Made by a program: the position numbers and the translations under genes. Of a stretch of DNA of 64,000 nucleotides, positions 3,018 to 59,447 are shown one piece after another. The notes beneath the pieces were generated by a model, which saw nothing but the letters and a program-made list of their open reading frames with translations, ran no database searches and was not told the origin of the DNA. Origin of the DNA: Nitrospirota bacterium (GTDB taxonomy: Bacteria > Nitrospirota > 9FT-COMBO-42-15 > HDB-SIOI813); NCBI GenBank assembly GCA_016212215.1, contig JACRGV010000009.1:63-64062 (forward strand), given 5' to 3'. How positions within the stretch are numbered: position 1 is the stretch's first letter; every line of letters starts with the position of its first letter.

Positions 3018-3039
3018 AATTGTGTAGAGACAGGGTACA

Positions 3040-3107
3040 TGGTTTTATTCCCCCTCCCTTGACTGGAGGGGGTTAGGGGGAGGGTGAGCTATGGAGATTT
3101 TCGGATG
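3040..3107. repeat. GC-rich palindromic mosaic repeat unit (REP/BIME-like)
   Basis: 'ccccctcccttgactggagggggttagggggagggtgagctatggagattttcggatgaa'. Hairpin plus the terminal ATG module that supplies the start of gene 3105. Confidence 0.8.
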
Positions 3108-18328: not shown

Positions 18329-20249
18329 TAGTCATAAATTGATCAGCCTTGATGTTTGTTAATTTCTGTACAATTCCAGAAGGCCATTGTATTGTAAGAG
18401 TATCAATTGATGAGGCGGTTCCGGTTCCGAAATGCACCGGGCCGCTTCCCTGAGAACGAAGTTCCCCTCCTCCGCCTCCGTTTACTTCCCTGAATTGATT
18501 TTTCCCGTTAATTGTCAAGGTAAGTTTCGCTCCAATTCCAAGACGGTTACTTTTCTTCCCTGCCAATTGAACCTTTAGATAGTGATTAATTTTATTCCTG
18601 TTATTCTTATAAAGAATCACAGGTCCATAAGCTAATGGGTATAGCTCACCAACGCCGTTCTTCAGGATAAGGTCAAGGAAACCGTCGTTGTTATAGTCCC
18701 CCCATGCAGCCCCGAAGTGCCGGTATGAGGCTTTATTATCATCAGTTCCTGTATTGCCTGCAACATCTGTAAATGTCCCATCACCATTATTTTTAAATAA
18801 TATATTAGGGGCACCCCCGGAAATATCTCCTCCATCTACAACGTATAAATCCATGAGGCCGTCATTATCGTAATCACCCCATAAGGCTGTTGAATGTGAT
18901 CCAATTTTATCCATACCGGATATAGTTGTTACATCACTGAAAGTCCCATCTTTATTATTTTTATATAGCGTATCTATGAAACCGGTATCAACGGGTTTAA
19001 AATTTGTTTTGATATTAGTTAAGCTGTTGTCACCTGTTATTTTACCGTAGAATATATTCAGGTTACCGTTACTGCTGTAATATACATGCCAGACATCAGA
19101 CTCATCTTTCCAAATATAAAAACCTATTTCTGATACCGGCAGGATAGTGGGAACACCTGTAAGCCGTTCATCATCTCTTGTTAAAGTAAAAGGCACTGTA
19201 GAAGGGGTTGTTTTCCCGCCCCCTAAAAATATTTTGTTGGGTTGATGTGTATTTTTAATTAATAGATCAAAAGTAACATTACTGCTTTGAGTCTCAAATT
19301 TAATTTCTCCTGCTAATAATTCTATCTCATCTTTAAAATGTATTTCTGATGGTTTTGAAACTAAATTGTGGTAATTAGTGTGAACACCCCGTGCAATGTA
19401 TAAGTCCATATAGCCGTCATTATCGTAATCACCCCAGGAAACACCATTCCCTATTTTCTTCAAAAAACCGGATTCTGATGTTGTTTCAGTAAATGTATGT
19501 GAAGACGGATTATTTTTAAATAACCGGTCATTGTTGATACCTACAACAATCAGATCCATTGTGCCATCATTATTATAATCCGCCCACGAACAAGTCTGGC
19601 CATCAATATTGTCTAACCCGGTTTCTTTTGTTACATCTGTAAATGTTCCATTTCCATTATTTTTATATAATACGCTGGTAGATGCATAGTTTAAAACAAA
19701 CAGGTCAAGAAATCCGTCGTTGTCATAGTCAACCCAGAATGCACTCCTGCCGCGTCCATCGGCATTTTCAACTCCGGCAGTCAAAGTTACATTTGTAAAA
19801 TTTCCATGTCCATCGCCTTTCCAGAGTTCATCAGTTTTGCTGCCGGAGCAATTACCGTGACACCCGCCGTTTGTTATGAACATGTCTAAATTCCCATCGT
19901 TATCGTAGTCACCAATGGCTATGCCGTGACGGTCCTTGCCTCCCACAGGACTAATGCCTGTATTTTTTGTAATATTTTTAAATTTATCATTCCCCTTATT
20001 ATCATAAAAGGTTAGCTTTTCCCAATGTTGATGTATAAGTATGTCCGGTTGATTATTATTATTGAAGTCTGCCCAGATTGGGTTAATAAAACTTAGGCCG
20101 GTCTTTGCCTTACCCAGCACTGTTAATGATGTGACATCTGAAAAGGTTGTTTGCGAATCCTCATTTTTTGGATCATTTAAACACCCGTAGATTAAAATTG
20201 GAAGTATGAGCAGAATAGAAAGATAATACAATGTATTAATATTCTTCAT
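18312..20249 (-). CDS. CRTAC1-family protein (FG-GAP/VCBS repeats + ASPIC/UnbV C-terminal domain), lipoprotein
   Basis: Repeated 'WGDYDNDGxxDLxV' FG-GAP-like blocks. C-terminal 'LKVQLAG...SNRLGIGAKLTLTINGK...REV...GGGELRSQGSGPVHFGTG' is an ASPIC/UnbV domain. Start chosen at ATG 20249 (MKNINTLYYLSILLILPILIYGC, lipobox) to avoid overlap with the upstream paralog. Confidence 0.7.
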   Translation of the reverse strand: MKNINTLYYLSILLILPILIYGCLNDPKNEDSQTTFSDVTSLTVLGKAKTGLSFINPIWADFNNNNQPDILIHQHWEKLTFYDNKGNDKFKNITKNTGISPVGGKDRHGIAIGDYDNDGNLDMFITNGGCHGNCSGSKTDELWKGDGHGNFTNVTLTAGVENADGRGRSAFWVDYDNDGFLDLFVLNYASTSVLYKNNGNGTFTDVTKETGLDNIDGQTCSWADYNNDGTMDLIVVGINNDRLFKNNPSSHTFTETTSESGFLKKIGNGVSWGDYDNDGYMDLYIARGVHTNYHNLVSKPSEIHFKDEIELLAGEIKFETQSSNVTFDLLIKNTHQPNKIFLGGGKTTPSTVPFTLTRDDERLTGVPTILPVSEIGFYIWKDESDVWHVYYSSNGNLNIFYGKITGDNSLTNIKTNFKPVDTGFIDTLYKNNKDGTFSDVTTISGMDKIGSHSTALWGDYDNDGLMDLYVVDGGDISGGAPNILFKNNGDGTFTDVAGNTGTDDNKASYRHFGAAWGDYNNDGFLDLILKNGVGELYPLAYGPVILYKNNRNKINHYLKVQLAGKKSNRLGIGAKLTLTINGKNQFREVNGGGGGELRSQGSGPVHFGTGTASSIDTLTIQWPSGIVQKLTNIKADQFMTINEEE

Positions 20250-20289
20250 TATGTACTGCGTTGCTTTCAACTTAGCTTGCACTAAATGA

Positions 20290-22197
20290 TTACTCAACAA
20301 CTCTTAAAGTTTGGTTCGCCGGTATGTTTGTTAAAATTTGAGTTAATCCGGATGGCCACTTAATTATAAGAGAATTTACGGCCGTTGCAGCACCTGTTCC
20401 GAAATGCACCGGTACGTTGCCTTGAGAATGTAATTCACCGCCGCTGTTAACTTCCCTGTACTGGATTTGACCGTTAATATTTAATATCAACTTTGCACCA
20501 ATGGCAGACCGGTTACTTTGAGTCCCGGTTAACTTAACCTTTAGCCAGTGGCTATTATTTCCATTATTCCTGTAAAGGACATCACTGCCTGTTGCGAGGG
20601 GATATGACATTCCCACACCATTTTTCATGAACAGGTCTAAAAAACCATCATTATTATAATCACCCCATGCAGCACCGAAATGGCGGCTCTGAATATTGCC
20701 CGCATCAATACCATTATAAACAGCGACATTCGTAAATGTACCATTACCATTATTTTTATACAGGAGATTAGGTTTACTTCCTGAAATGTCTCCAGCCTCT
20801 ACAGTATATAGATCTATGAAACCGTCATTATTAAAATCTCCAAAGGCAGATGTTTGATGATTACCAAACTTCCCAACACCTGCTGAATCAGTAACATCAG
20901 TAAAAGTGCCGTTACCGTTATTTTTGTAAAGTGTATCTTTAAATTGAAGTCTTGCAGGGGTAAATGTCGGGACAACTGAGGTAAAACTACCATTACCTGT
21001 TATGACGCCATAATATACAGGCCACTTGTTATATCCGCTGTACCTCAGATGCCATGTGCCTGTATTATCTTTCCAGATATAATAACCTGTGTCTACTCCA
21101 CGGGTGTAAGCAGGCATTCCATCAAGCAAGGGGTCTGATGCAGATATTGTAAATGGCAGAGATGCAGGATTGGTTTTATTCCCTCCGATAAAAATCATGC
21201 CTTTTTGCGCGAGGTTACTAATATAAAGGTCAAAGGTTACACTTCCACTATTGGTAGTAAAATCAACGCCGTCTTCCAAGTTTTCCTCATCTAAGAATGT
21301 AATTTTAGATGCATTCCAGATTAAGACATCCCTCATCTTTTCTATCCCCCGTGAGACATGAAGGTCAGGCAGGCCGTCATTATTATAATCTCCCCAAGCT
21401 GTTCCCATTCCTATCCTCGGGAGAAGACCTGCTTGCGTTGTTATATCAGTGAAGATATGGGAAATGGGGTCATTTCTGAATAACCTGTCCTTTACAACCC
21501 CGGTTACAAGAATGTCCATCGCACCGTCATTATTATAATCTGCCCATGAACAGACCTTACCTGTTATTTTCATTAGGCCGGTTGCTGATGCAACGTTTGT
21601 AAATGTCCCATTGCCGTTATTCCTGTACATTACACTGTTAGTATTATAATTCAAGACAAACAGGTCTAAGAGTCCGTCATTATTATAGTCAACCCAGTAG
21701 GCACTCCTTCCTCGACCGGAGGAGTTTGCAACACCGGCGGCGGTTGTAACGTTTATAAACTTCCCCTGCCCGTTTCCTTTCCATAGTTCATCGCTCTTAC
21801 CGCCTATGCAGTTACCCATGCAGGCTCCATCTGTAATGTATATATCCAAGTTCCCGTCATTATCATAATCTCCCCATGCCATACCATGCCTGTCTACGCC
21901 TGTCACAGGAGTAATGCCTGAAGTTCCAATTATGTTAATAAACTTACCGGAACCATTATTCAGATAAAGAGATAGAGGCCCTACGTGGTGTTGAATAAGA
22001 ATATCAGGATTATCATCATTATTAAAATCACCCCACATCGGGTTATCGTAACTCGCCCCAACCTTCCCGAGTCCTGCTGAAGCAGTAACATTTGTAAAAG
22101 TTGCTGATGCATTAGTTACCTCAAATCCATAATTGATCAAGACAGATATGACGAAAGTAATCGAGCAAATAATAAAACGACACAGTTGTTTCTTCAA
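20290..22197 (-). CDS. CRTAC1-family protein (FG-GAP repeats + ASPIC/UnbV), tandem paralog
   Basis: Same architecture and motif blocks as 18312-20249 (WGDFNNDDNPDIL, ASPIC/UnbV C-terminus). N-terminal signal peptide. Confidence 0.7.
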   Translation of the reverse strand: MKKQLCRFIICSITFVISVLINYGFEVTNASATFTNVTASAGLGKVGASYDNPMWGDFNNDDNPDILIQHHVGPLSLYLNNGSGKFINIIGTSGITPVTGVDRHGMAWGDYDNDGNLDIYITDGACMGNCIGGKSDELWKGNGQGKFINVTTAAGVANSSGRGRSAYWVDYNNDGLLDLFVLNYNTNSVMYRNNGNGTFTNVASATGLMKITGKVCSWADYNNDGAMDILVTGVVKDRLFRNDPISHIFTDITTQAGLLPRIGMGTAWGDYNNDGLPDLHVSRGIEKMRDVLIWNASKITFLDEENLEDGVDFTTNSGSVTFDLYISNLAQKGMIFIGGNKTNPASLPFTISASDPLLDGMPAYTRGVDTGYYIWKDNTGTWHLRYSGYNKWPVYYGVITGNGSFTSVVPTFTPARLQFKDTLYKNNGNGTFTDVTDSAGVGKFGNHQTSAFGDFNNDGFIDLYTVEAGDISGSKPNLLYKNNGNGTFTNVAVYNGIDAGNIQSRHFGAAWGDYNNDGFLDLFMKNGVGMSYPLATGSDVLYRNNGNNSHWLKVKLTGTQSNRSAIGAKLILNINGQIQYREVNSGGELHSQGNVPVHFGTGAATAVNSLIIKWPSGLTQILTNIPANQTLRVVE

Positions 22198-22254
22198 TAC
22201 TTAGCCTCCTTTGTTATTAAAATAACCTTAGGTAAAAAAGGAATGGCAGTCACT

Positions 22255-24405
22255 CTATTTGACTTTATATCCAAGCAGCCATGCACTTGATTGGAATGAA
22301 GGAGACACTGTAAGGCTTTCATTGCTGATTACCTCTACAGCTCCTATGTGGATTTCTCCTGACACCTTGTTCCCGATATTAAATGTTTTAGAATAGGTTG
22401 AACCATTTGATATTAATTTGGACACGCTTTTCCCATCATCATAGAACAGGTAGGCATTAACAGGTACTGATGCAGGGGTAAATATTTCCATCTCAACTGT
22501 GACCTCATTGTTTTTATTCAAGATTGGTAATCCATCGGGTATATTACGGAGTTCTCGGGAGATGCCTGTTTCCCAAAAGACAACCCCTTCCTGATTTTTG
22601 ATTTTAACCCATTTTATTTTGAATTCCGGGTCCGGAGTTCCTGATGATGTCATAATGATTTCATTAGGCGAAATATGTGATACACTCCAGCTTCCATCAT
22701 CATTCTCATGGGCCTTAATATTGGATTTAATAGATATGTTGATATGTTTAGTAGTTGTGCCTAACTTTGCTTCGCCTGCCCCAATCCTTTCGACTTCAAC
22801 GTTTGCTATGGAACCATTGGCATCACCGGCTATATTCTGGAAAGAGATGTCTCCTGACAGGGTTCTTGTCAGTTCAGGCTGAGATGGTATTGTTATTTCA
22901 AAAAGGCTGTTGATTTTCAACAGCTTTTCTAAACTTATTGCATCCTTGATCTTATCAAGGGCTATATTTGACATTGTGCTTCCAGTCGTAAATGTCCATG
23001 AATAGTTATTTACCAATGCATTACCTGCAACGTCTTGAACCCCTGTAGTGATGGTTGCTGTGTATTGAATTTCGTAGCTAAGCGGGGCTGATGGTTTAAA
23101 TGTAGCAGTGCCGTTATTATAAGTAACATTTCCTGCTATCGTGCTGCCATCCGTTTTTTTCAAAGTAAATGTTTCTGTTGTTATGGTAAGTGGGTTCATA
23201 GCTTCAGAGAAGGTTGCAGAGACAGATGTATCAGCACTTATACCGGTAGAATTACCGGCAGGAGCAAACGAATCAAGAATTACTGCCGGTGGTGTGGTAT
23301 CCGGGGTTATGCCTGTAGTAAAGCTCCATGATTTGTTGGATGCCATATAATTGCCGGCCAGGTCCTTTACCCCTGTTGTGATTGTTGCATTGTAGGGAGA
23401 AGAGTCATCGAGAGAGACTGATGGGTTAAAAGTAGCAGTCATTCCATTGTAAGAGACATCTCCTGTAACATCGCTCCCGCCTGATTTAGCCAGAGTGAAT
23501 GTTGTTGTATTTACAGTGGATGTATTAATTGATTCGGAGAATGTTGCTGATATAGAAATGTTAGAAGGAATATCAGTTGTATTATTCTCAGGATATGTAG
23601 AGCTTACAGAAGGTGGTGTAGTATCCTCATCTAAAGCAGAACCGGTAGTGAAAGTCCATGTATAATCATTTGTCATCCCATTTCCTGCTGAATCTTTTAC
23701 TGCGGATGTAATATTTGCAGTGTAGTCAGTTAAATAACTTAATGGGGCTAATGGTTTAAAAGTAGCAGTATTTCCATTATAAGAAACCTCTCCTGTAACA
23801 CTGCTGCCGTCTGTTTTAGTTAAAGTAAATGTTGCTGTTGTTATTGTAGATGGATTGATAGGTTCCGAGAATGTTGCTGTTAAAGAAGCATTGGAAGCAA
23901 CACCTGTAGTATTTCTTTCAGGAGCTGTAGAATTTATAGAAGGAGGTGTAGAATCAGGCGCCGCATCTGTAGTAAAGCTCCATGAGAAACTATTGGTCAT
24001 GTTATTGCCTGATATGTCTTTTATGCCTGTAGTAATTGTTACTGTGTAAGTATTGGAGTGCAAAAGTGAGGCTGTTGGTGTAATGGTAACAGAGGTTCCA
24101 TTATATGTAACTATAATGGGTATATTAGTACCATTTGATGTCATTATAAAATTTGCTGTAATTAATGTGGATGGGTTAATCTGCTCACTGAATACAGCAG
24201 AGATAATTGTATTAATACCTACATCAGTTGAATTATTTGCAGGGGTTGTGGAAGTTACAGCCGGTGGAGTAGTATCAGAAGGTGAGGCACCTGCTGTGGA
24301 ATTTTGTGCACCTCCATTAATAGAACCACAGCCTCCGAACAGAGTCCCCAGAAATAATAATATGATTAAAACCTGTGCATAGGATAAAAGTGACCTCTTT
24401 TTCAT
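22255..24405 (-). CDS. Surface lipoprotein with five tandem bacterial Ig-like (SbsA/Big_5-type) domains + C-terminal beta-rich domain
   Basis: Five ~95-aa repeats 'DTTPP...ST.P..N.T.V....I.A.FSE.INPST...A.F.L.....S.V.G.VSYNG.TATF.P...L...T.Y.A.IT...KD..GN....N.SW.FTT'. Start at ATG 24405 (MKKRSLL...LFGGCGS lipobox) is preceded by a GGGGGA RBS. The track's ORF start at 24492 looks like an artefactual extension. Confidence 0.65.
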   Translation of the reverse strand: MKKRSLLSYAQVLIILLFLGTLFGGCGSINGGAQNSTAGASPSDTTPPAVTSTTPANNSTDVGINTIISAVFSEQINPSTLITANFIMTSNGTNIPIIVTYNGTSVTITPTASLLHSNTYTVTITTGIKDISGNNMTNSFSWSFTTDAAPDSTPPSINSTAPERNTTGVASNASLTATFSEPINPSTITTATFTLTKTDGSSVTGEVSYNGNTATFKPLAPLSYLTDYTANITSAVKDSAGNGMTNDYTWTFTTGSALDEDTTPPSVSSTYPENNTTDIPSNISISATFSESINTSTVNTTTFTLAKSGGSDVTGDVSYNGMTATFNPSVSLDDSSPYNATITTGVKDLAGNYMASNKSWSFTTGITPDTTPPAVILDSFAPAGNSTGISADTSVSATFSEAMNPLTITTETFTLKKTDGSTIAGNVTYNNGTATFKPSAPLSYEIQYTATITTGVQDVAGNALVNNYSWTFTTGSTMSNIALDKIKDAISLEKLLKINSLFEITIPSQPELTRTLSGDISFQNIAGDANGSIANVEVERIGAGEAKLGTTTKHINISIKSNIKAHENDDGSWSVSHISPNEIIMTSSGTPDPEFKIKWVKIKNQEGVVFWETGISRELRNIPDGLPILNKNNEVTVEMEIFTPASVPVNAYLFYDDGKSVSKLISNGSTYSKTFNIGNKVSGEIHIGAVEVISNESLTVSPSFQSSAWLLGYKVK

Positions 24406-24653
24406 TCTCAGTCCCCCGCTTATTACCGTTGATTCATGTTGTATTTTAAGGGTTAACCATTCCAATTCTTTTAGTAATAAAATAGTATGCAAATCTTATG
24501 CCCGAATGTTGCCGGATATTATATGGCAAATGCTAATTATTTTGATATTTTTTGCAGGGGCGAAGAGGGTTTTTTACTGGAATATTTATCAGAGGCGGTG
24601 TTTATGGCATCCGCCTCTGATAAATTATTAAAGAATTTTATGGCAGATACGTT

Positions 24654-29166: not shown

Positions 29167-29513
29167 TCAAATCCCCACTACCCACCTTTTCTAAATGGGG
29201 AGCGTCTCCCGTGTTACTCATTCCTCATAAACCATCAACCATCAACCGTCTTAAACCGTAACCGTTCACAGTTATCAGTTTACGGTTCACGGTTTTTCAA
29301 CGAGTTATGTAACGCTTGGAGCATTTTTGAAATTGACTTCAATTCTTGAATGAGTTCTTTCGCATCACTATTAGAAAATACCTCTTACTTTTATATTTTT
29401 CTTAACCCTTAACTGTAAACTGTCAACTGTGAACGGTTACCTTAAACCTTTCTTGCTTTTTAAACCCTATCCATTTAAAATCATGCTTTAAAATAATCTG
29501 GGTCTATCAGTAT

Positions 29514-33059: not shown

Positions 33060-33125
33060 ATTTCCCCTCCCCTTGCGGGAGGGGATTAAGGGGAGGGTTA
33101 GGGTGGGGATGGGGTTATTTTCGGA
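33060..33125. repeat. REP/BIME-like unit
   Basis: 'ttcccctccccttgcgggaggggattaaggggagggttagggtggggatggggtt'. Confidence 0.8.
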
Positions 33126-34993: not shown

Positions 34994-35042
34994 CAAACAG
35001 TAAGCAGGTAGCAGGAAGCAGTAAAAAAAAGAATTCCCTCCC

Positions 35043-35100
35043 CTTCAAGGGGAGGGTTAGGGTGGGGATGGGGTTTATTCTTCGATGAATCAGGAGACAC
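35043..35100. repeat. REP/BIME-like unit
   Basis: 'ccctccccttcaaggggagggttagggtggggatggggtttattcttcgatgaa'. Confidence 0.8.
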
Positions 35101-35629: not shown

Positions 35630-35713
35630 TAGGGATGAGCATAGAGCAGAAGTAAGAAGCAAGAAATTAGAAGTAAGAAGATTGTACTGATAATAAACAC
35701 TAAGGGGGAATGA

Positions 35714-36727
<1,014 letters not shown>

Positions 36728-36742
36728 CGGATAACGCAAAAA

Positions 36743-37195
36743 GCCCCCCCTCCCCTTAATCCCCTCCCGCAAGGGGAGGGGAGACATAAGAGAGATTCCT
36801 TACCCTGGGGGGAGCGGGTACATAGAATATGCTCAAGGGAGAGGGTACTAAGTTTATCCCCCCTCCCTTGACGGGAGGGGGTTAGGGGGAGGGTGAGCTA
36901 TGGTGATTTTCGGATGAACTCCCATGAGCGGGGCGATCACAAAGGGCAATGAAAACCCCACCCTCACCCTAACCCTCTCCCTGAGGGAGAGGGGGCTACG
37001 TTGATTCCCTCCCCTTCAAGGGGAGGGGTAGGGTGGGGATGGGGTTGATTTTCGGATGAACTCACATGAACCAGGGTTCACGAATGGCAATGAAAATCAA
37101 CGGGACAAGAATGTCCCGCCTATCCTCATAGATATGGATAGGCGGGGTTTTCTTACCCCGCCGGAAGGATTTTCGAGTGAGTTCAATCAGGAGGA
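36743..37195. repeat. Composite BIME-like cluster (at least 5 units in alternating orientation) + three-hairpin 75-bp module
   Basis: Alternating 'ccctcccc..ggggaggg' and inverse 'caccctcaccctaaccctctccctgagggagaggg' units joined by 'catga(a/g)cNNNgNtcacaaagg.catgaaaa' linker hairpins. Ends with 'cgggacaagaatgtcccgcctatcc…ggataggcggggttttcttaccccgcc'. Confidence 0.8.
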
Positions 37196-37207
37196 TGAAA
37201 ACAATAA

Positions 37208-37852
37208 ATGGATCGTAACAGTGCCCCGTTAGCAGCAGAAGGGGTGCCTTTTGTAATTATTTCCGGGGTTATATCCATTTTGCTCTTTCTTCCGGGATGG
37301 TTGATACCCGGCATTATTTCTTCTCTGCTTTTTCTTTTTATAGTATGGTTTTTCCGTAATCCTCAGCGGAGTATTCCGACCGGGAAAAATTTGGTTGTCT
37401 CTCCTGCGGACGGTAAGATCATTGTAATAAAGAAAGGCGAAGTTGACCGTGTTCTGAAAAAGAAGATGGTGAAGATAAGCATATTCATGAATGTCTTTAA
37501 TGTCCATGTGAACAGGATACCGTGCAAAGGAAAGATAGTTGATATACTCTACAATCCCGGGAAATTTGTATCTGCCAATTTAGATAAGGCATCCCTTGAG
37601 AATGAGCAGAATGCCGTTGTAATGGAGACTGAGAAAGGGGAGAAGGTACTTTTTATACAGATAGCAGGATTGATTGCAAGGAGGATCGTCTGCCGTCTCA
37701 AAACCGGTCAACGTGTTGAAAGGGGAGAGCGGTTCGGATTAATAAGGTTCGGGTCAAGGGTGGATGTGTATCTGCCTGAGACTGCTGATATTAAGGTATC
37801 AATAGGACAAAAGGTGAAAGGAGGCGAGAGTATTCTCGCGGCACTGAAATAA
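37208..37852 (+). CDS. psd: Phosphatidylserine decarboxylase (short-form proenzyme)
   Basis: PSD family signature around 'GERFGLIRFGSRVDVYLP' (GS cleavage/pyruvoyl site). Membrane N-terminus. Immediately upstream of pssA. Confidence 0.7.
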   Translation: MDRNSAPLAAEGVPFVIISGVISILLFLPGWLIPGIISSLLFLFIVWFFRNPQRSIPTGKNLVVSPADGKIIVIKKGEVDRVLKKKMVKISIFMNVFNVHVNRIPCKGKIVDILYNPGKFVSANLDKASLENEQNAVVMETEKGEKVLFIQIAGLIARRIVCRLKTGQRVERGERFGLIRFGSRVDVYLPETADIKVSIGQKVKGGESILAALK

Positions 37853-38631: not shown

Positions 38632-40135
38632 AATTAAGATATTTGATACCACACTGAGAGACGGGGAACAGTGTCCCGGCGCCAGTATGAATAAGGAGGA
38701 AAAGCTTACAGTTGCAAGACAACTGGCCAGGCTTAATGTAGATATAATTGAGGCAGGTTTTCCAATTGCATCAGAAGATGATTTTGATGCGGTAAGACTC
38801 ATTGCAGGGGATGTAAAAGGGCCTGTGATTGCAGGGCTTGCAAGGGCGAGAAAAGAAGATATAGAGCGTGCGGCCGAGGCGGTAAAGATTGCTGAACGTT
38901 CAAGGATACATACATTTATTGCAACATCTGAGATACATATACAACAGAAACTTAGGATGAGCCGTGAGGAGGTTATCGAAGCCGCTGTTGCTGCGGTCAG
39001 ACTTGCGAGACAGTTTACAGATGATGTGGAATTTTCTGCAGAGGACGCCTCAAGGAGTGATATAGATTTTCTGTGCAGGGTGGTGGAAGCGGCCATTAAT
39101 GCAGGTGCATCCACTATAAATATACCGGATACTGTCGGCTATGCACTCCCTGATGAGTTTGGTGAATTAATCGGCAGTATAATGAACAGAGTTCCCAATG
39201 TTGATAAGGCGGTGATAAGTGTTCATTGCCATAATGATCTGGGGCTTGCAGTTGCAAATTCCTTATCCGCTGTCCTTGCAGGGGCAGGTCAGGTGGAGTG
39301 TACTATAAATGGTATTGGAGAGAGGGCCGGCAATGCCTCTATGGAAGAGGTTGTTATGGCCTTAAAGACGAGGGGACAATATTTTAGTGCGGACACCGGT
39401 ATTACTACGCAGGAGATTTATAAATCAAGCAGACTTGTGAGCACAATAACCGGCATGGTTGTTCAGCCGAATAAGGCGATCGTCGGGGCTAATGCCTTTG
39501 CCCATGAGTCCGGAATCCATCAGGACGGGCTGTTGAAAGATAAAAGGACCTATGAGATAATGACGCCTGAATCTGTTGGAATATCTGAGCACAAATTAGT
39601 GCTTGGAAAACATTCAGGCAGGCACGCATTCAAGAATAAACTCGTGGAGATGGGATACAACATCTCAGAGGATGAGATAAACAAGGCGTTTGAACGATTC
39701 AAGAAGCTTGCTGACCAGAAGAAAGAGGTCTTTGAGGAAGATTTGGACGCAATTGTAACTGAGGAGGTTTACCGGATACCTGAGAGATTTGTATTGAAAA
39801 ATTTACATGTGGAAAGCGGCAGTAATGTAACCCCTGCGGCAATGGTTGAACTTGAGATAGACGGCAGGAGTGTTACGAACAAATCGTCCGGAGACGGGCC
39901 GGTAGACGCCACCTACAGGACTATAAAAGAGATGGTAAAGACAAACAGCATCCTGTTGTCTTATGAAGTCAAAGCTATAACAGGCGGGACAGACGCACTC
40001 GGCGAAGTTACAGTAAGACTTGAAGAAAATGGAAGAACAGTAGTCGGCCAGGGTGCAGACACAGATATTATAATAGCCAGTGCAAAGGCATATCTGAATG
40101 GACTGAACAGGATGGAGAGCAGGAAAAAGCAGTGA
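38624..40135 (+). CDS. leuA: 2-isopropylmalate synthase
   Basis: '[11 protein letters not shown]' and '[12 protein letters not shown]' signatures, plus the C-terminal LeuA dimerisation domain. Confidence 0.9.
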
Positions 40136-40560
40136 ATCGTGATTAGTGAATGGTGAATAGTAAAGGCCCCCTCACCCGGAGCCTCTCCCTGAGGGGGAGG
40201 GGGCTACGTTGATTCCCTCCCCTTCAAGGGGAGGGGTAGGGTGGGGATGGGGTTGATTTTCGGATGAACTGTCATGAAACGGAGGTTTCACAAAGGAGGA
40301 TGAAAACCACCCCCCCAATCCCCCCCTTGTTAAGGGGGGGAAAGTTCCTTTGGTGCTCAATGGCCAACGGCAATCCCCCCCTTTGTTCAAGGGGGGGCAT
40401 GGGGGGGTCATTTTCGGATGAACCCACATGAACCAGGGTTCACAAAGGGACATGAAAATCAGCGGGACAAGAAAGTCCCGCCTATCCTCGTAGAGATGGA
40501 TAGGCGGGGTTTTCTTACCCCGCCGGAAGGGATTTTCGGATGAATGCAAATGAGGTTAAA
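40126..40560. repeat. Composite BIME-like cluster incl. 3' 'cagtgaat' module, variant C-tract hairpins and three-hairpin module
   Basis: Starts at leuA's last codons ('aaagcagtgaatcgtgattagtgaatggtgaatag'). Contains 'cccccctt gttaa gggggg' variant hairpins. Ends with the 75-bp module before leuC. Confidence 0.8.
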
Positions 40561-41875: not shown

Positions 41876-42063
41876 ATTTCCCTCCCCCTTGAGGGGGGAG
41901 GGGCAGGGTGGGGGTGAGCTATGGAGATAATCAGATGAACTCCCATGAAACAGGGTTTTACAAAGGGGCATGAAAATCAGCGGGACAAGAATGTCCCGCC
42001 TATCCTCAATTTACACATGGATAGGCGGGGTTTTCTTACCCCGCCGGAGGAATTTTTCGAATG
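41876..42063. repeat. BIME-like cluster + three-hairpin module ending in leuD start codon
   Basis: 'ccctcccccttgaggggggaggggcagggtgggggtgagctatggagataatcagatgaactcccatgaaacagggttttacaaaggggcatgaaaatcagcgggacaag…ttttcgaATG'. Confidence 0.8.
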
Positions 42064-42621: not shown

Positions 42622-42697
42622 GAAGATTGATGCTATAGGCAAGAATTAAGAAGTAAGAAGCAAGAAGATAGAGACACAAGTTAGAGAAAAAAAGATA

Positions 42698-42800
42698 CCC
42701 ACCCTCACCCGGACCCTCTCCCTGAGGGAGAGGGTGCTTAGATTATTCCCTCCCCTTCAAGGGGAGGGTTAGGGTGGGGATGGGGTTATTTTCAGGAGAT
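42698..42800. repeat. BIME-like pair of units
   Basis: 'cccaccctcacccggaccctctccctgagggagagggtgctt…ccctccccttcaaggggagggttagggtggggatggggtt'. Confidence 0.8.
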
Positions 42801-42808
42801 AATTCACA

Positions 42809-43894
42809 ATGACTACTACTTACAAGATAGCGGTTTTTCCGGGTGATGGGATTGGGAGGGAGATTGTTCCTCAGGCGGTCAGGGTTCTAAAGGCCATCAG
42901 TAATAAGTATAATATTAATCTTGAATTGCAGGAGGCATTGGTCGGGGGCAGTGCGATTGATGCGTACGGGATACCTCTGCCGGAGGAGTCGCTGAATATT
43001 GCACTTCACAGCGATGCAGTATTGCTTGGTGCTGTAGGGGGGCCAAAATGGGAGGGGTTAGATTATTCCATCAGGCCTGAAAGGGCATTGCTTGGACTAA
43101 GGGAGAAGCTCGGATTATTTGCGAATCTGAGACCGGCAAGGCTCTTCTCATCTCTTGCTGATGCTTCTACACTAAAGAGGTCAGTAATAGACGGTATTGA
43201 TATAGTAGTTATAAGAGAATTAACCGGCGGGATATACTTTGGTAAGCCGAGGGGTATAGAAAAGATTGATGGAGAGGAAAGGGGTATAAATACAGAGGTA
43301 TATACAACCCATGAAATTGAACGTATTGCAAGGCTTGGCTTCCAGGTTGCAAAAAGCAGGCGCGGTAAATTATGCTCTGTTGATAAGGCAAATGTACTGG
43401 AGTCTTCAGAGCTTTGGAGAAGGGTGGTAATCGGCATACACAAGGAATATGAAGAGGTGGAGTTGTCTCATATATATGTAGATAATTGTGCCATGCAGTT
43501 GATAAGGAATCCACGGCAATTCGATGTCATATTAACCAGCAATATGTTCGGCGATATCCTGAGTGATGAGGCGGCTATGCTTACAGGGTCAATCGGTATG
43601 CTTCCATCTGCAAGTATCGGCGGTGAGACAGGGATGTACGAACCTATTCATGGGAGCGCCCCGGATATTGCCGGTCAGGACAAGGCAAATCCAATTGCCA
43701 CAATACTCTCAGTGGGGATGATGTTGAAATATTCATTCGGCCTGGACATTGCTTATGAGGAGATTGAGTCTGCTGTTAACAGGGTTCTGGAAAAAGGCTA
43801 TCGTACTGCAGACATATATTCTGAGGGGGCGCAGGATACCCGGCTTGTCGGCACAATTGAGATGACAGATATTATTCTAAATGAACTTACGTAA
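42809..43894 (+). CDS. leuB: 3-isopropylmalate dehydrogenase
   Basis: '[13 protein letters not shown]', '[25 protein letters not shown]' IMDH/ICDH family signature. Confidence 0.9.
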
Positions 43895-44321
43895 TCCTCT
43901 GGAATCCTTGTACAATAAAAAACAACTTTTTATTTCAGTTGTAAGTATTCTTATACTACTTGTATCTGTTGTTACAGGCTGTGCAACTGTTGAGGTGAAT
44001 GAGAGCAATGATGGTCCATATATAGTATCTACTTATCCTTCCTCAGGTGATTTTAATATATCAAGACTTACAGACATTAGTATAAGATTCAGTGAGTCAA
44101 TGGACACAGAAACCCAGGCTGAATTCAGGATGTTATTAAGCGGTTCAAAGGTGGATGGTGAGACGAGGTGGATGGATTCAAATACCATGCTTGCATTCAG
44201 GCCGTACAAGCCTCTTGAGGCAAACAGCCTGTATCAGTGCATTTTAGGGATAGGGAAGTCTAAGGAAGGTAAGGGGCTAAGAGGGGCGCCGTATATATGG
44301 ATGTTCAGCACCGGGAACTGA
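43881..44321 (+). CDS. Small lipoprotein with Ig-like (SbsA-type) domain
   Basis: Lipobox 'VVTGCATV'. '[29 protein letters not shown]' resembles the N-terminal strand region of the Ig-like repeats in 22255-24405. Confidence 0.45.
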
Positions 44322-44344
44322 CAAGTGCAGTGTGCGGAATGAGC

Positions 44345-44475
44345 AAAACCCCACCCTCACCTTAATCCTCTCCCTGAGGGAGAGGAAATTTCCCACCCAT
44401 TTAAGGGGGAAGTTAGTGTGCCATGCTTAAATTCCCTCCCCTTCAAGGGGAGGGTTAGGGTGGGGATGGGGTTAT
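44345..44475. repeat. BIME-like pair of units
   Basis: Same two unit types as 42698-42800. Confidence 0.8.
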
Positions 44476-45520: not shown

Positions 45521-45555
45521 TGAGTTACAGCTTACAAATGATGATAAATATAAAG

Positions 45556-45730
45556 CCCCCTCACCCGGTGCCCCCCCCGCCTGCCTCCCCCCGCAAAGGA
45601 GGGGGGAGGAATTTGGTAGGAATTTAATTGCAGCTCTCCCGCCAGGGGAGAGGGAGGCTAACGTTTATTCCCCCTCCCTTGACGGGAGGGGGTTAGGGGG
45701 AGGGTGAGCTACGAAGATTTTCAGGAGAAC
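45556..45730. repeat. BIME-like cluster
   Basis: 'cccctcacccggtgcccccccgcctgcctccccccgcaaaggaggggggag…ccccctcccttgacgggagggggttagggggagggtgagctacgaagattttcaggaga'. Confidence 0.8.
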
Positions 45731-45732: not shown

Positions 45733-46893
45733 ATGAACAGAATATACCTTGACCATGCAGCGACTACTCCAATAAGGCCGGAAGTTATTGAGGCTATGCA
45801 GCCTTATTTCAGCAATTTCTTTGGGAATCCATCGAGCCTCCATTATTTCGGGAAGGAGACTGCAAATGCTATTAAAGACGCAAGAGAGAAGATTGCGGCA
45901 ATAATAGGGGCGCGTTGGGATGAGATTGTCTTTGTAAGCGGCGGGACAGAATCGGACAATCTTGCCATATTCGGTACCGCCTTTGCGAACAGGGATAAGG
46001 GAAGGCATATAATAACATCATGTATTGAACATCATGCTGTTCTTGAACCATGTCGCTTCCTTGAGAGGGAGGGATGGAAGGTCACGTATCTTCCGGTAGA
46101 CAGATATGGGATGGTAAATCCTGAAGATGTAAAAGATGCAATTACTGATGAGACATTTTTAATCTCAATTATGCATGCTAATAATGAAATAGGCACTATT
46201 CAGCCTATGAAGGAGATAGGGGCAATTGCAAAGGAGAGGGGTGTCATATTTCATTCAGATGCTGTTCAGACGTTTTCCCATATTCATGTAAATGTTGACG
46301 AACTTAATGTAGACCTGCTTTCTTTCTCCGGTCATAAATTCTATGGTCCTAAAGGTATCGGTGGTCTTTATGTAAGAAAAGGTACTGCAATATCTCCTCA
46401 TATACATGGGGGGTATCAGGAGTTTAAACTCAGGGCCGGTACAGAAAATGTTGCAGGGATTGTAGGTGTTGCAAAGGCAGTACAGCTTGCATCTCTTGAG
46501 ATGGTTGCACAGACCGCTTATGTAATGTCCCTGAGGGACAGGCTTGTTGAGTCCATTCTTGAGATAGATGGTATTAAACTTAACGGGCATCCAGGGAACA
46601 GGCTCCCCAATAATATAAATATTACTGTTGATTTTGTTGACGGAGAGGCAATGCTGATAAACCTTGATTTCAAAGGTATTGCAGTATCCACAGGCTCTTC
46701 ATGCAGGTCTGCGATTAAAGGGCCGTCACATGTGTTAACCGCTATCGGCAGGACGTATGAAGAGGCGAGGAGCGCCGTTAGAATCACACTCGGTAAGGAT
46801 AACACTGAAAAAGAGATTGTCTACTTTATTGAGGTTTTTAAAGATATTTTAACTAACCTGAGAAAGATGTCGCCGGTGTATCAAAAGCAGTGA
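45733..46893 (+). CDS. Cysteine desulfurase (NifS/IscS family, class V aminotransferase)
   Basis: 'IYLDHAATTP', PLP-Lys region 'FSGHKFYGPKGIGGLYVR', catalytic Cys loop 'STGSSCRSA'. Confidence 0.8.
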   Translation: MNRIYLDHAATTPIRPEVIEAMQPYFSNFFGNPSSLHYFGKETANAIKDAREKIAAIIGARWDEIVFVSGGTESDNLAIFGTAFANRDKGRHIITSCIEHHAVLEPCRFLEREGWKVTYLPVDRYGMVNPEDVKDAITDETFLISIMHANNEIGTIQPMKEIGAIAKERGVIFHSDAVQTFSHIHVNVDELNVDLLSFSGHKFYGPKGIGGLYVRKGTAISPHIHGGYQEFKLRAGTENVAGIVGVAKAVQLASLEMVAQTAYVMSLRDRLVESILEIDGIKLNGHPGNRLPNNINITVDFVDGEAMLINLDFKGIAVSTGSSCRSAIKGPSHVLTAIGRTYEEARSAVRITLGKDNTEKEIVYFIEVFKDILTNLRKMSPVYQKQ

Positions 46894-46925
46894 ATAGTGA
46901 ACAGTGAACAGTGAATAGTTAACTA
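46886..46925. repeat. 3' 'cagtgaat' tandem module overlapping the NifS-like gene stop
   Basis: 'aaagcagtgaatagtgaacagtgaacagtgaatagttaac', ~80% identical to the 40126-40165 module after leuA. Confidence 0.7.
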
Positions 46926-46994: not shown

Positions 46995-47090
46995 ATCCCT
47001 ATCCAGCCAGGGGAGAGGGTGTTAAGTTTATTCCCCCTCCCTTGACGGGAGGGGGTTAGGGGGAGGGTGAGCTATGGATATTTTCACATG
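46995..47090. repeat. BIME-like units upstream of queA
   Basis: 'ccagccaggggagagggtgttaagtttattccccctcccttgacgggagggggttagggggagggtgagctatggatattttcacATG'. Confidence 0.8.
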
Positions 47091-48972: not shown

Positions 48973-49045
48973 AAACCAGCGGGACAAGAAAGTCCCGCCT
49001 ATCCTAAGTAGAAATGGATAGGCGGGGTTTTCTTACCCCGCCGTA
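48973..49045. repeat. Three-hairpin 75-bp module (copy 4)
   Basis: 'cagcgggacaagaaagtcccgcctatcctaagtagaaatggataggcggggttttcttaccccgcc'. Confidence 0.8.
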
Positions 49046-51680: not shown

Positions 51681-51682
51681 TA

Positions 51683-52040
51683 AACCCTCATGAGCGAGGC
51701 GCTCACAAAGGACAATGAAAACCCCACCCTCACCCTAACCCTCTCCCTGAGGGAGAGGGGGCTATGTTGATTCCCTCCCCTTCAAGGGGAGGGGTAGGGT
51801 GGGGATGGGGTTGATTTTTGGATGAACCGCCATGAGCCTTCGGCTCACAAAGGTACATGAAAATGAGGCCCCCTCACCCGGAGCCCCCCTCCTGCCTCCC
51901 CCCGCAAAGGAGGGGGGAGAAATTTGGTAGGAATTTAATTGCAGCTCTCCCGCCAGGGGAGAGGGATGCTAAGTTTTTCCCCCTCCCTTGACGGGAGGGG
52001 GTTAGGGGGAGGGTGAGCTATGGAGATTTTCGGATGAACT
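51683..52040. repeat. Composite BIME-like cluster (at least 5 units)
   Basis: Linker hairpins with compensatory stems (tgagcg-ag-gcgctca; tgagcc-ttc-ggctca). Ends with the 'gattttcggATGaa' module. Confidence 0.8.
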
Positions 52041-53054: not shown

Positions 53055-53140
53055 AGATGAGCGTAGGGGAGAAGTAAGAAGTTAGAAGTAAGAAGTTAGA
53101 AGCAAGAAGTAAGAAGTTAGAAGTAAGAAGGCTGAAGACT
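53055..53140. repeat. Heptamer tandem repeat (gtaagaa/gttagaa)n, about 11 units
   Basis: 'gaagtaagaagttagaagtaagaagttagaagcaagaagtaagaagttagaagtaagaaggctgaag', immediately after the E1alpha stop. Confidence 0.8.
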
Positions 53141-53289: not shown

Positions 53290-54261
53290 ATGGAGATTAC
53301 ATATCTTGAGGCAATACGGCAGGCTTTGGATGAAGAGTTAGCACGGGATAAGGATGTGTTTCTGCTTGGTGAGGATATTGGAAACTATGGTGGGGCATTC
53401 CGTGTTACAGAGGGGTTTTATGAGAAGTATGGGAGGTGGAGGATTATTGATACGCCGCTTTCTGAATAAGGCTTTACCGGCGCTGCGATAGGTGCGGCAT
53501 TGATGGGGATGAGACCGGTTGTTGAGATGCAGTTTGCAGATTTTATCTCCTGTGCCTTTGACCAGATTGTAAATGTGGCGGCAAAAAATTATTACAGGTG
53601 GGGAGGTAAAACACCAATGGTTATCAGGGCGCCTTTTGGAGGAAATGTACACGGCGGTGCATTCCACTCACAGTGTCCGGAAGGGTGGTTCTTCAATGTA
53701 CCGGGATTAAAGATCGTGGCCCCATCCAACCCTTATGATGCAAAGGGGCTTTTGAAATCTGCAATCAGGGATGATGACCCTGTTATATATTTTGAACACA
53801 AGTTTCTTTATCGCAGGATAAAAGGGGATGTCCCTGATAATGATTATGTAGTCCCCCTTGGAAAGGTAAATGTTGTAAGGGAAGGTGAGGATATTTCTAT
53901 AATAACTTATGGTGCAATGACGCACATTGCCTTAGAGGCATCAAAGACCCTTGGAGATGACGGGATAAGTGCAGAGATAGTGGATTTAAGGACACTTTTA
54001 CCGCTTGATAAAGAAGGAATTTATAAATCTGTTAAAAAGACCAACAAGGTCATTGTCCTGTATGAAACAGCAAAGACAGGCGGTATCGGCGCTGAGGTCT
54101 CAGCATTAATTGCAGAGGATATGTTTGAATACCTTGACAGCCCCGTAGTCCGCATCGCTGCACCCGATACACCGGTACCATTCAGTCCCCCATTAGAAGA
54201 ATTCTATCTGCCTAAGGCAGAAGATGTGGTGAAGGCCGCGAGGAGACTGGCAGCTTATTAA
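53290..54261 (+). CDS. 2-oxoacid dehydrogenase E1 component beta subunit, interrupted by an in-frame TAA at 53467-53469 (possible pseudogene, sequencing error or recoding)
   Basis: 53290-53466 encodes [59 protein letters not shown], the canonical E1beta N-terminus. After the TAA the same frame continues [25 protein letters not shown]... (transketolase-like Pyr domain) to 54261. Confidence 0.7.
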
Positions 54262-54332: not shown

Positions 54333-54380
54333 TTCCCTCCCCTTCAAGGGGAGGGTTAGGGTGGGGATGGGGTTGTTTTT
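54333..54380. repeat. REP/BIME-like unit upstream of E2
   Basis: 'ccctccccttcaaggggagggttagggtggggatggggttg'. Confidence 0.8.
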
Positions 54381-56557: not shown

Positions 56558-57019
56558 GTGCGTCAGCAATGGCTTGACCAGCGGGAGTTGATAGATTCAA
56601 TGGTTGATAATAGTCCGGCAAGTCCTGCAGGTCTTCCATTAAAGAAAGGCAGGGAGGTCAACCTGATTGACCCTGCTATAATGGAAATACCAAGTACGAT
56701 TACTATAAGCCGAAATAACAAAAATACCATTGCCAATGGTGCAGGAGGAAGTGTTCTTGCTGAACCTGCTGCTGCAAGCGAAGGGGCAGAAGTTTTTTAT
56801 ACAGGAAATAATTATGCATCATATTCTACAAATGGCGGCGCTATATGGGTTAATGTTCCTATACCGGCAGGTCCTGCCGATGCCTCGCTCCCATGCTGTG
56901 ATAATGATGTAATCCATGACAAAGGGCAGCAAGAAGTTAGAAGCAAGAAGTTAGAAGTAAAGATTGGCTGCCACTTCCCTATTTTTAGCTTTCCCCCCTC
57001 CATTGACGGGAGGGGTTAG
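56558..57019 (+). CDS. Hypothetical protein (possible 3' part of a disrupted secreted-protein gene beginning at 56366)
   Basis: The track ORF starts at GTG. It is in the same frame as the signal-peptide ORF 56366-56477, separated by a single TAA. The 3' end runs into a heptamer/GC-hairpin repeat. Confidence 0.3.
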   Translation: MRQQWLDQRELIDSMVDNSPASPAGLPLKKGREVNLIDPAIMEIPSTITISRNNKNTIANGAGGSVLAEPAAASEGAEVFYTGNNYASYSTNGGAIWVNVPIPAGPADASLPCCDNDVIHDKGQQEVRSKKLEVKIGCHFPIFSFPPSIDGRG

Positions 57020-57050
57020 GGGGAGGGTGAGCTATGGGTATTTCCGAGTG
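56990..57050. repeat. REP/BIME-like unit with GTG variant of the terminal start module
   Basis: 'ccccctccattgacgggaggggttagggggagggtgagctatgggtatttccgaGTGaaa'. Confidence 0.75.
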
Positions 57051-59361: not shown

Positions 59362-59447
59362 AGAAAATCAGCGGGACAAGAATGTCCCGCCTATCCTCAT
59401 AGATATGGATAGGCGGGGTTTTCTTACCCCGCCGGAGGGGGCGGATG
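59362..59447. repeat. Three-hairpin 75-bp module (copy 5) supplying the TonB receptor ATG
   Basis: 'cagcgggacaagaatgtcccgcctatcctcatagatatggataggcggggttttcttaccccgccggagggggcggATGaac'. Confidence 0.8.

Follow-up and report, generated by a model that had tools for sequence, protein, structure and literature searches.

A stretch of 64,000 nucleotides (nt) from an uncultured Nitrospirota bacterium (GenBank assembly GCA_016212215.1, contig JACRGV010000009.1, positions 63 to 64,062; hereafter the window) carries GC-rich hairpin repeats in the spacers of a biosynthetic gene string. Judged by their sequence, these hairpin units are members of the BoxC/PIT/TM_ECO family of intrastrand triplex motifs (TM), and we lean towards a combined reading in which such units and arrays of mini-elements of the IS110 family of insertion sequences (ISs) have been inserted in operon spacers. 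Our focus is the 480-nt spacer (36728-37207) between ilvC (35714-36727) and psd (37208-37852), which has 54% G+C, compared with 41% for the window and 46-56% for the unit-bearing spacers. On the + strand the genes run in the order ilvB, ilvN, ilvC, psd, pssA, leuA, leuC, leuD, leuB, a gene for a Big_5 protein (big5), asd, a class-V aminotransferase gene (nifS), queA, and more. The spacer itself reads, in order, as an inverted doublet of units (U1/U2), a right-end-like tail, a core, a left-end hairpin, a second doublet of a type B and a type A unit, another tail, core, and left-end hairpin, a palindrome that we call the T-module, a degenerate tail, and the ribosome-binding site of psd (Table 1).

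A triplex motif with a mirror third strand

The GC-rich repeats are genuine and exceed chance expectation by a wide margin. The pattern CCCTCCC-N3-12-GGGAGGG has 16 matches in the window versus 0.00 in 100 shuffles, and a strict scan, which demanded a pyrimidine arm looped to a complementary purine arm and, after a second, short loop, a third strand, returned 26 units, 25 of which lie in spacers (17 on the + strand, 8 on the - strand) and one of which is a probable chance match inside queA (47542); each of 20 mononucleotide shuffles gave 0-1 units. All but one of the spacer units (24/25) fall within 33-57 kb, in 14 spacers of the ilvBNC-psd-pssA-leuACDB-asd-nifS-queA string, at a density of about one per kb across 24 kb. 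An earlier note, made from the sequence alone, had described such hairpins at 17 or more sites, in both orientations and concentrated in the ilv-leu-asd-nifS-queA block, and all of this is borne out. It had also described each unit as a hairpin followed by ttagggtggggatggggtt; the hairpins stand, whereas that tail is restricted to the eight type-A copies, and the remaining types carry GGGGGAGGG, GGGTGAGGG, AGGGGAGGG, or GGGTGGGGG. Type A' has seven near-identical copies in the window (repeat family D7). Compared with shuffles, the region 36738-37200 folds with z = -9.5 as DNA and -8.9 as RNA, and the U1/U2 and B/A inverted doublets are predicted to fold as long hairpins.

The published relatives of these units are the BoxC repeats of Escherichia coli, renamed PIT elements and then TM_ECO, with the pattern CCCTCNCCC-N3-6-GGGNGAGGG-N3-GGGNGAGGG and 3610 copies across 262 proteobacterial genomes; for the E. 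coli sequence, and so far only for it, a single DNA strand has been shown to form an intrastrand triplex of the class II purine-motif type in vitro (Holder et al., NAR 2015, PMC4666352). Three window units (36961-36993, 42702-42734, and 51727-51759) match this pattern exactly, versus none in shuffles, and the other 22 are stem variants. Matches to the window B unit over 46 nt occur in 5409 of the 5426 complete E. coli genomes, with a median of 16 sites per genome, and the best of these are mostly 80-95% identical. The two sets have in common a pyrimidine arm, a loop of 3-6 nt, a purine arm, a 3-nt loop, and a third, G-rich strand, and in both the units are multicopy, intergenic, found in both orientations, and often arranged as inverted doublets. 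They differ in that the published pattern does not cover most of the window units, which are stem variants (CCCTCCCC, CCCCCTCCC, C7), and in that the window units lie at about one per kb over 24 kb and sit between IS110-like ends. The host also differs, being non-proteobacterial, with 41% G+C and nearest relatives that are labelled Nitrospira/Nitrospirota or are 'Deltaproteobacteria' metagenome-assembled genomes (MAGs).

The third strand of the window units begins 3 nt after the purine arm and is that arm reversed, an A being either retained or exchanged for T. A 9/9 mirror match is found in every perfect hairpin of the window, across five asymmetric stem types and only ever on one of the two strands; a direct-repeat model reaches just 7-8/9, and only with a shifted loop. 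All 25 units fit the class II layout, in which the third strand is antiparallel to the purine arm and G•G, A•A, or T•A contacts run throughout. The rule extends to a collection of about 250 loci, where the mirror fits better in 128 of 181 distinct asymmetric arm/tail combinations, the direct repeat in 10, and 43 are ties. When the second loop is set to 3 nt, a perfect mirror third strand follows 29 of 42 distinct asymmetric arms (for example AAAGAGGGG / GGGGAGATT, AAAGGGAGG / GGAGGGATT, and AGGGGAAGG / GGATGGGGA) and a perfect direct repeat follows 0 of 42, whereas permuting the third strands among the arms 2000 times gave a mean of 2.3 perfect mirrors and a maximum of 8. We rejected a direct repeat of the arm or an alternative pairing partner as the identity of the third strand. 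A G-quadruplex was likewise rejected as a general rule: four tracts of three or more G, as needed for a G-quadruplex, occur in window types A, A', and B but in only 11 of the 42 mirror-rule arm families, and most families have too few G-tracts.

Replication yields direct or inverted repeats, not mirror repeats. For this reason we infer that the mirror rule is maintained by selection for a fold that depends on mirror symmetry, for which a triplex of single-stranded DNA, rather than RNA, is the obvious candidate; its design would be that of an intrastrand purine-motif DNA triplex with G•G.C, A•A.T, and T•A.T triads. The core unit itself is already known; the comparative support for the mirror rule is new. 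A third strand that tracks the mirror of the purine arm over dozens of unrelated arm sequences in several phyla amounts to covariation-type evidence for a non-Watson-Crick DNA fold.

Linker hairpins and the ends of IS110-family elements

The units are joined by seven linkers in the window, whose 3' stem arms end at about 36939, 37080, 40290, 40442, 41960, 51705, and 51847. The four complementary stem variants quoted in the earlier note are all present: TGAACC/GGTTCA in two linkers, TGAGCC/GGCTCA in one, TGAGCG/CGCTCA in one perfect copy and one with a G.A mismatch, and TGAAAC/GTTTCA in one perfect copy and one with a G.T pair. An alignment of eight window sequences has two-sided changes in three of six stem pairs and 95.8% of its cells paired; its covariation score was reached by none of 500 shuffles, and slid registers pair at 20-48%. 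Metagenomic linkers, fetched from at least 120 contigs with a pattern from the conserved flanks of the window linker, provided 77 distinct hairpins, in which the six outer stem pairs are 91% Watson-Crick and G.T (19) exceeds A.C (6). The proposal that this covariation reflects selection on the hairpin thus holds as far as a conserved hairpin goes, but the hairpin sits at an IS left end. The conserved block runs from (A/G)TGAAAC, 10 nt before CATGA, through ATGAAAAT, with TTTTC-RG upstream in about half of the copies. The metagenomic linkers are intergenic and face both ways, slightly favouring the gene strand (56 versus 34), a pattern that does not fit a dedicated cis-regulatory RNA. A small open reading frame (ORF) in the linker was rejected, given that loop lengths differ by 2-4 nt (so that the frame is lost) and that the ATG-to-TGA spacing differs between window and metagenome. 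Resemblances to an IHF site, a K-turn, and a hammerhead, compared by eye, were dropped as the consensus does not fit. A literature search with the linker sequence returned only unrelated primers.

IS110/IS1111-family ISs encode a DEDD recombinase that is guided by the element's own non-coding bridge RNA or seekRNA (PMC11208160, PMC11187229). At least 14 of 120 linker-selected contigs encode a protein with PF01548 (DEDD_Tnp_IS110) and PF02371 (Transposase_20) that starts 90-190 nt downstream of the linker in the same orientation. Its gene is followed by about 330 nt of conserved non-coding sequence ending in ..ATTTTCAG-NN-GAAA, beyond which the flanks diverge. To control for selection bias, a search was also made with the transposase alone, and contigs were fetched for three homologues: L248, which has two tandem copies, L249, L250 from a Nitrospirota MAG (GCA_040755805.1), and L251. 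The five IS copies in them all start with GAAAC-NNN-CATG-hairpin-CAC-AAAGG-NNN-ATGAAAAT and end with ATTTTCAG-NN, with unrelated flanks past the core. The tandem in L248, a 2-Mb metagenome contig, comprises two different IS110-family copies (1320-4450) that have different left-end stems and share exactly one GAAAC. As side observations, the transposase frames in L171, L174, L230, L238, L247, and L180 break after about 305 amino acids (aa) near GGAAAGAAAAAAGC and resume in another frame (AILTQCAWAASKTKNTYL..), and some database homologues are uninterrupted (405-408 aa); the shared break may be a conserved frameshift.

Non-coding segments of these ISs co-vary with their ends and host flanks, as seekRNA/bridge-RNA systems predict. 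A segment GCAG-NN-GAAA-TTTTT repeats the right end and core, including the variable dinucleotide (AT, GT, AG, or GG), in 12 of 12 IS copies, and a second segment, NNNN-GAAAC-TGA, equals the four host bases left of the core in 8 of 11 copies and matches three of four bases in two more. Since this presumed guide segment matches bases to the left of the hairpin, the hairpin would be placed inside the element.

The linkers of the window can be aligned, column for column, to the right-end/core/left-end junctions of the tandem ISs in L248 and L249 (alignment A3), and one window/IS junction pair, counted by hand, is about 80% identical outside the variable stem. Across these junctions the right end has the form ATTTTC-RG-NN, the core is GAA(A)C, and the left end is NNN-CATGA-hairpin-TCAC-AAAGG-NNN-ATGAAAAY; the window-type junction reads ..TTTTCGGAT, GAAC, NNNCATGA.., with a right end ..ATTTTCGGAT. 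On this alignment the window linker looks like a homologue of the right-end/core/left-end junction of IS110-family (DEDD) ISs. The autonomous relatives of the linkers carry PF01548 and PF02371, a long 3' non-coding region whose segments repeat their ends and target, and a short core at both junctions, features shared with IS110/IS1111 elements and with ISPpu9, which moves a module holding only ssr9 (PMC12288879). The window copies differ from these in being only about 100-150 nt long, with palindromic hairpin cargo and without a transposase or guide region, and in forming head-to-tail arrays in operons.

This homology bears directly on the idea that the units are REP/BIME-type repeats (repetitive extragenic palindromes in bacterial interspersed mosaic elements, or REPINs) copied by a REP-associated tyrosine transposase (RAYT, an IS200-like Y1 enzyme), with the hairpins as its single-stranded DNA substrate. 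Like REPs, the repeats are short, GC-rich, palindromic, multicopy, and extragenic, they form mosaic clusters with linkers, and their inverted doublets fold as long hairpins; four copies, a G variant of type A, even have an internal GTAG. The interspersed mosaic of palindromes in both orientations, with its BIME-like layout, therefore stands from the earlier note. A canonical REP does not: the units begin with (T)TCCC..., there is no conserved GTAG/CGTC head, and GTAG occurs only inside those four copies. A search with E. coli RayT and a homologue found with it, over the window and the locus collection, gave three Y1-type matches (L071, L116, and L231), none flanked by these units or linkers; the L071 and L231 genes are flanked by other repeats (GGGGACGGTTCTA and GCAGGCTTTAGCCTGC). 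Canonical REP/RAYT systems do exist in related bacteria, where a GTAG-headed REP (GTAG-TCGCAGGC-TTTA-GCCTGCG) fills the L123 spacers and the same hairpin flanks a RAYT-like fragment in L231 (5200-6000); this REP is absent from the window. With linkers that match the ends of DEDD-type ISs, and a mirror third strand for which the REP model has no place, we consider a RAYT origin highly unlikely, and the proposed role as a RAYT/TnpA(REP) substrate is not supported.

Another possibility is that the linker is an independent REP-like host repeat and a preferred IS110 landing site, the arrays having been built by some other process, with linker and TM units independent of the IS. IS110/IS1111 members often target palindromic repeats (REPs for IS621 and ISPpu9, QMITE2 for IS1111), every IS copy seen adjoins a hairpin, and many linkers have no transposase nearby. 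The small palindromic repeats of Coxiella burnetii, QMITE2, are physically tied to an IS1111-type element in a similar way (PMC5896051), yet there the repeat is the target split by the IS, whereas the window-type hairpin would lie inside the guide-defined element boundary. The right flanks of the ISs lack the remainder of a split target, tandem ISs are separated by exactly one core, and different transposase lineages come with different stem types (CGG..CCG, ACAG..CTGT, or CCGAC..GTCGG). A landing-site origin thus appears quite improbable.

Probable mini-elements in operon spacers

Exact-protein look-ups with the IlvC and IlvN of the window returned no record. By similarity, the best IlvC match comes from a Logan contig (L121, 95% identity), followed by a MAG labelled Nitrospira sp. 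(93%) and by groundwater MAGs labelled Deltaproteobacteria (82-83%). The gene order is kept in the relatives' loci L121, L123, and L125 and largely kept in L124, and there the spacers are short: the ilvC-psd spacer is 21, 19, or -4 nt versus 480 nt in the window, leuA-leuC 18-28 nt versus 427 nt, leuC-leuD a 4-nt overlap versus 199 nt, and big5-asd 16-18 nt versus 185 nt. A fifth compared window spacer has 212 nt, and the relatives range from overlap to 28 nt at the compared sites. With synteny conserved, these comparisons mark the window clusters as recent, lineage-specific insertions inside operons.

The clusters are probably head-to-tail arrays of transposase-less IS110-family mini-elements carrying triplex-motif or T-module cargo, each with the layout core, left-end hairpin, palindromic cargo (a TM doublet or a T-module), right end, core; the ilvC-psd spacer would have two of them in a row, the proposed E1 and E2. 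Window positions 36922-37060 and 51688-51826 are about 95% identical, and the match breaks off at the downstream core and, at its other end, just within the upstream GAAC core. Among metagenomic linkers, 44 of 121 are followed within 450 nt by a right-end motif, and the cargo in between has a median length of 82 nt; the motif occurs in 11 of 372 random windows. TM-type hairpins unlike the window sequences make up at least 18 of these cargos, often in a (-)(+) doublet layout, and one cargo is a single 22-nt hairpin related to the T-module. The reading of the mosaic clusters as likely mini-element arrays with triplex-motif cargo inside operons is new; a literature search found no published description of such miniature IS110 arrays.

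Several points weigh against this picture. No IS110-family transposase was found in the 64-kb window (tblastn) or in the loci L001-L125 (120 TM-selected and five IlvC-selected), so that a partner elsewhere in this genome has to be assumed. The window core is GAAC, not GAAAC, the right-end tail is ..CGGAT, not ..CAGNN, and the GAGCC/GAACC-type stems of the window linkers are not seen beside a transposase in the sampled IS copies. The conservation of CATGA, TCACAAAGG, and ATGAAAA in the metagenomic linkers is partly built in by the window-derived search pattern, and the 95% duplicate could be a recombinational duplication. The TM_ECO triplex of E. coli was undetected in duplex DNA and by in vivo footprinting (PMC4666352). 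TM units also occur without IS110-like ends in E. coli and in betaproteobacterial and Desulfobacterota loci; hence the IS family cannot explain the spread of TM units in general, nor the identity of one 38-mer across phyla.

That 38-mer is the type-A sequence CCCTCCCCTTCAAGGGGAGGGGTAGGGTGGGGATGGGG, which is unchanged in at least 120 contigs and at least 67 species-level genomes of other phyla, and its presence in several phyla without change is a new observation. Its carriers include isolates of Undibacterium, Noviherbaspirillum, and Hydromonas and MAGs labelled Gallionellaceae, Rhodocyclaceae, Geobacter, Syntrophaceae, Chromatiaceae, and Nitrospirota. Their G+C content ranges over 43-68% between loci, the flanks are unrelated, and an inverted partner is often 20-60 nt away. 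ORFs in loci outside the window were called only crudely. Exact matches were absent from IMG/VR viral contigs, and a megablast search of plasmid and phage collections gave none, which is weak evidence against a vector as the BLAST low-complexity filter may mask such a query. In loci of Geobacter sp. UBA9976 (L013, L019, L041, L085, L089, and others) the type-A unit lies within a larger genome-specific repeat with inverted ends TTCTACTTTGTCAGATTAC / GTAATGTGACAAAGTAGAA; in a Rhodocyclaceae MAG (L023, L028, L030, and L032) a conserved 60-nt spacer separates inverted type-A units inside larger genome-specific repeats.

The elements might instead be kept by the host, as mRNA stabilisers, processing sites, attenuators, or terminators, or for a role as DNA in topology, H-DNA or G-quadruplex formation, or as hotspots of variation. 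They have strong predicted folds as both RNA and DNA, they crowd into a single, highly expressed string of biosynthetic genes, with 17 of the 25 units in sense orientation, and all five T-modules lie just upstream of start codons; TM_ECO has been linked in published work to local genomic instability, with a G-quadruplex-hairpin switch proposed there. However, relatives with 86-95% identical IlvC lack the elements in the corresponding spacers, so that operon function does not need them, and orientation elsewhere is near neutral, for the linkers (56 versus 34) as for type-A units relative to their neighbouring genes in tandem spacers of other genomes (25 same, 18 opposite). Purine-motif triplexes are reported not to form in RNA, PIT elements had no promoter or terminator activity in earlier published tests, and only the 11 of 42 arm families noted above are G-quadruplex-capable. 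No Rfam family matches at gathering score in the whole window, with only sub-threshold generic microRNA-like hairpins in 36700-37260. The terminator or attenuator role suggested previously is unlikely: no sense-strand T-run follows the hairpins, a scan for intrinsic terminators gave 18 sites versus a shuffle expectation of 16.4 with a single sense-strand match on a unit (40319), the first T-module hairpin is terminator-like on the - strand, and one cluster lies between leuC and leuD, which overlap in relatives. Selection for a host function is, in our estimate, quite unlikely to account for the elements.

Under the mini-element reading, a full-length IS elsewhere in the genome would supply the recombinase and guide RNA and mobilise the mini-elements in trans, much as cargo between IS1111/IS110 ends is mobilised by transposase and seekRNA (PMC11187229). 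Integration would take place at GAA(A)C cores, in many cases those in the ATGAA(A/C) at a gene start. In the window, a GGAG in the right-end-like tail lies 8-10 nt upstream of an ATG with which four genes begin: leuD (42061), a gene at about 3110 (likely start), a TonB-dependent receptor gene (59445), and, with 5 extra nt between tail and start, nifS (45733). The leuD start ATGAAAG directly follows the tail, and relatives have RTGAAAG at the same position. By bringing this GGAG, the right end may let downstream genes keep a ribosome-binding site and the operon tolerate the insertion, and the TM fold may matter as single-stranded DNA and may form a triplex in vivo. A bolder proposal, which we regard as rather unlikely, is that TM doublets are not passive cargo but a working part of a widespread class of miniature elements, whose layout of left-end hairpin, TM(-), TM(+), and right end would be retained although the TM sequences differ completely between lineages, and that these elements are mobilised by an RNA-guided IS110-family recombinase, insert at start-codon GAA(A)C cores, and bring their own Shine-Dalgarno sequence.

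Other repeats of the window and implications

The T-module, a palindrome of about 65 nt, has five near-identical copies, all on the + strand and all just upstream of start codons, which appear as families D13, D17, and D18 in the repeat listing of the window. It can fold as a single long hairpin or as three hairpins, and a 27-mer from it has no exact match in the metagenome contig collection.

Table 1. Positions of triplex-motif units, linkers, T-modules, and proposed mini-elements in the window
Feature	Coordinates	Strand	Remarks
TM unit U1	36748..36782	-	TCCCCTCCC-CTTGC-GGGAGGGGA-TTA-AGGGGAGGG read on - strand; perfect hairpin, 9/9 mirror third strand; pairs with U2 in predicted folds
TM unit U2, type A'	36859..36893	+	CCCCCTCCC-TTGAC-GGGAGGGGG-TTA-GGGGGAGGG
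Right-end-like tail GATTTTCGGAT	36905..36915	+	aligns to IS right end ..ATTTTCAG+NN
Core GAAC	36916..36919	+	counterpart of GAAA(C) core in autonomous IS copies
Linker 1, left-end-like segment	36920..36956	+	TCC-CATGA-stem-loop-stem-TCAC-AAAGG-GCA-ATGAAAAC
Linker 1 stem arms	36925-36930, 36934-36939		one G.A mismatch
Proposed mini-element E1	36920..37057	+	left-end hairpin, U3, U4, right-end tail; GAAC at 36916-36919 and 37058-37061
TM unit U3, type B	36961..36993	-	CCCTCTCCC-TCA-GGGAGAGGG-TTA-GGGTGAGGG; exact TM_ECO pattern
TM unit U4, type A	37007..37044	+	38-mer CCCTCCCCTTCAAGGGGAGGGGTAGGGTGGGGATGGGG
Right-end-like tail GATTTTCGGAT and core GAAC	37047-37057, 37058-37061	+
Linker 2, left-end-like segment	37062..37097	+	TCA-CATGA-ACC-AG-GGT-TCAC-GAATG-GCA-ATGAAAAT
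Linker 2 stem arms	37067-37072, 37075-37080
T-module copy 1	37100..37163	+	64-nt GC-rich palindrome; cargo of proposed mini-element E2 (37062-37178)
Degenerate right-end-like tail GATTTTCGAGT	37168..37178	+	upstream of native psd ribosome-binding site
Native psd ribosome-binding site AGGAGG	37189-37194		start codon at 37208
TM unit, A' type	3050..3083	+	then GGAGATTTTCGG, then ATGAAT, likely start codon of downstream gene
TM unit with type-A third-strand tail	33063..33097	+
TM unit, type A	35036..35068	+	ilvB-ilvN spacer
TM doublet, B-like (-) and type A (+)	40169..40247		leuA-leuC spacer
Linker 3	40255..40306	+	right-end tail, core GAAC 40266-40269, left-end hairpin TGAAAC/GTTTCA
C7/G7 TM doublet	40308..40409		(-) 40308-40341, (+) 40375-40409
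Linker 4	40409..40459	+	core 40420-40423, stem TGAACC/GGTTCA
E2, second copy	~40424-40540		repeat family D13
T-module copy 2	40462..40525	+	upstream of leuC
TM unit GGGGGAGGG / GGGTGGGGG	41880..41914	+	leuC-leuD spacer
Linker 5	41926..41977	+	core 41937-41940, stem TGAAAC/GTTTTA, one G.T pair
T-module copy 3 and right-end-like tail GGAGGAATTTTTCGA	41980..42060	+	T-module part to 42046; tail adjoins leuD start ATGAAAG (42061)
TM doublet, B (-) and type A (+)	42702..42780		leuD-leuB spacer; B unit 42702-42734 has exact TM_ECO pattern
TM units, B-like (-) and type A (+)	44354..44466		big5-asd spacer
TM unit, A'	45670..45704	+	asd-nifS spacer; degenerate composite before it at 45555-45660
TM unit, A'	47033..47067	+	nifS-queA spacer
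T-module copy 4	48979..49043	+
Linker 6	51682..51722	+	core-like AAAC, stem TGAGCG/CGCTCA; opens second copy of E1
E1, second copy	51686-51823
TM doublet, B (-) and type A (+)	51727..51805		second copy of E1 cargo; B unit 51727-51759 has exact TM_ECO pattern
Linker 7	51813..51864	+	core 51824-51827, stem TGAGCC/GGCTCA
TM unit, A'	51979..52013	+
TM unit, type A	54335..54367	+
TM units	54637-54671, 54746-54780	-, +
TM unit, degenerate A'	56995..57026	+
T-module copy 5 and GGAGGGGGCGG	59371..59444	+	T-module 59371-59434; adjoins start ATGAAC (59445) of TonB-dependent receptor gene

Tandem 7-nt arrays directly follow stop codons at 35648-35680, 42641-42667, 53070-53137, 54271-54319, and 56928-56958 (AGAAGTA type) and at 40131-40161 and 46888-46923 (AGTGAAT/CAGTGAA type). 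The same spacers in relatives hold other heptamers, namely ATTGGTT/AACCAAT in L121 and GTAGGGT with AGAAACA in L123, and we take these arrays to resemble the short tandemly repeated repetitive (STRR) sequences of cyanobacteria. An inverted repeat of GTTCACGGTT-like units (family I23) lies upstream of a histidine kinase gene (29258-29440), and three long - strand ORFs at 18312-24492 have internal coding repeats with periods of 150-330 nt (families D1, D6, D14, and D16). The transketolase-like E1-beta gene (53290-54261) has an in-frame TAA (53467-53469), which could reflect a pseudogene, a sequencing error, or recoding. A 1608-nt contig of the public short-read assembly SRR12113407 (L127), met via its LeuB protein, is 100% identical to window 42767-44374 and ends inside TM units at both sides, so these repeats break assemblies. 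On the practical side, they break metagenome assemblies and create spurious ORFs.

BoxC/PIT/TM repeats became known about 30 years ago, and no function or mode of spread has been assigned to them since. If TM doublets were a working part of the mini-elements, this would be the first mobility mechanism for BoxC/PIT repeats and comparative evidence for in vivo selection of an intrastrand triplex. The recombinases of the IS110 family with their bridge or seek RNAs are of current interest, and natural mini-element arrays would show cargo mobilisation and target choice in nature; mini-elements stacked in essential operons without breaking them would supply many natural variants of the donor ends.

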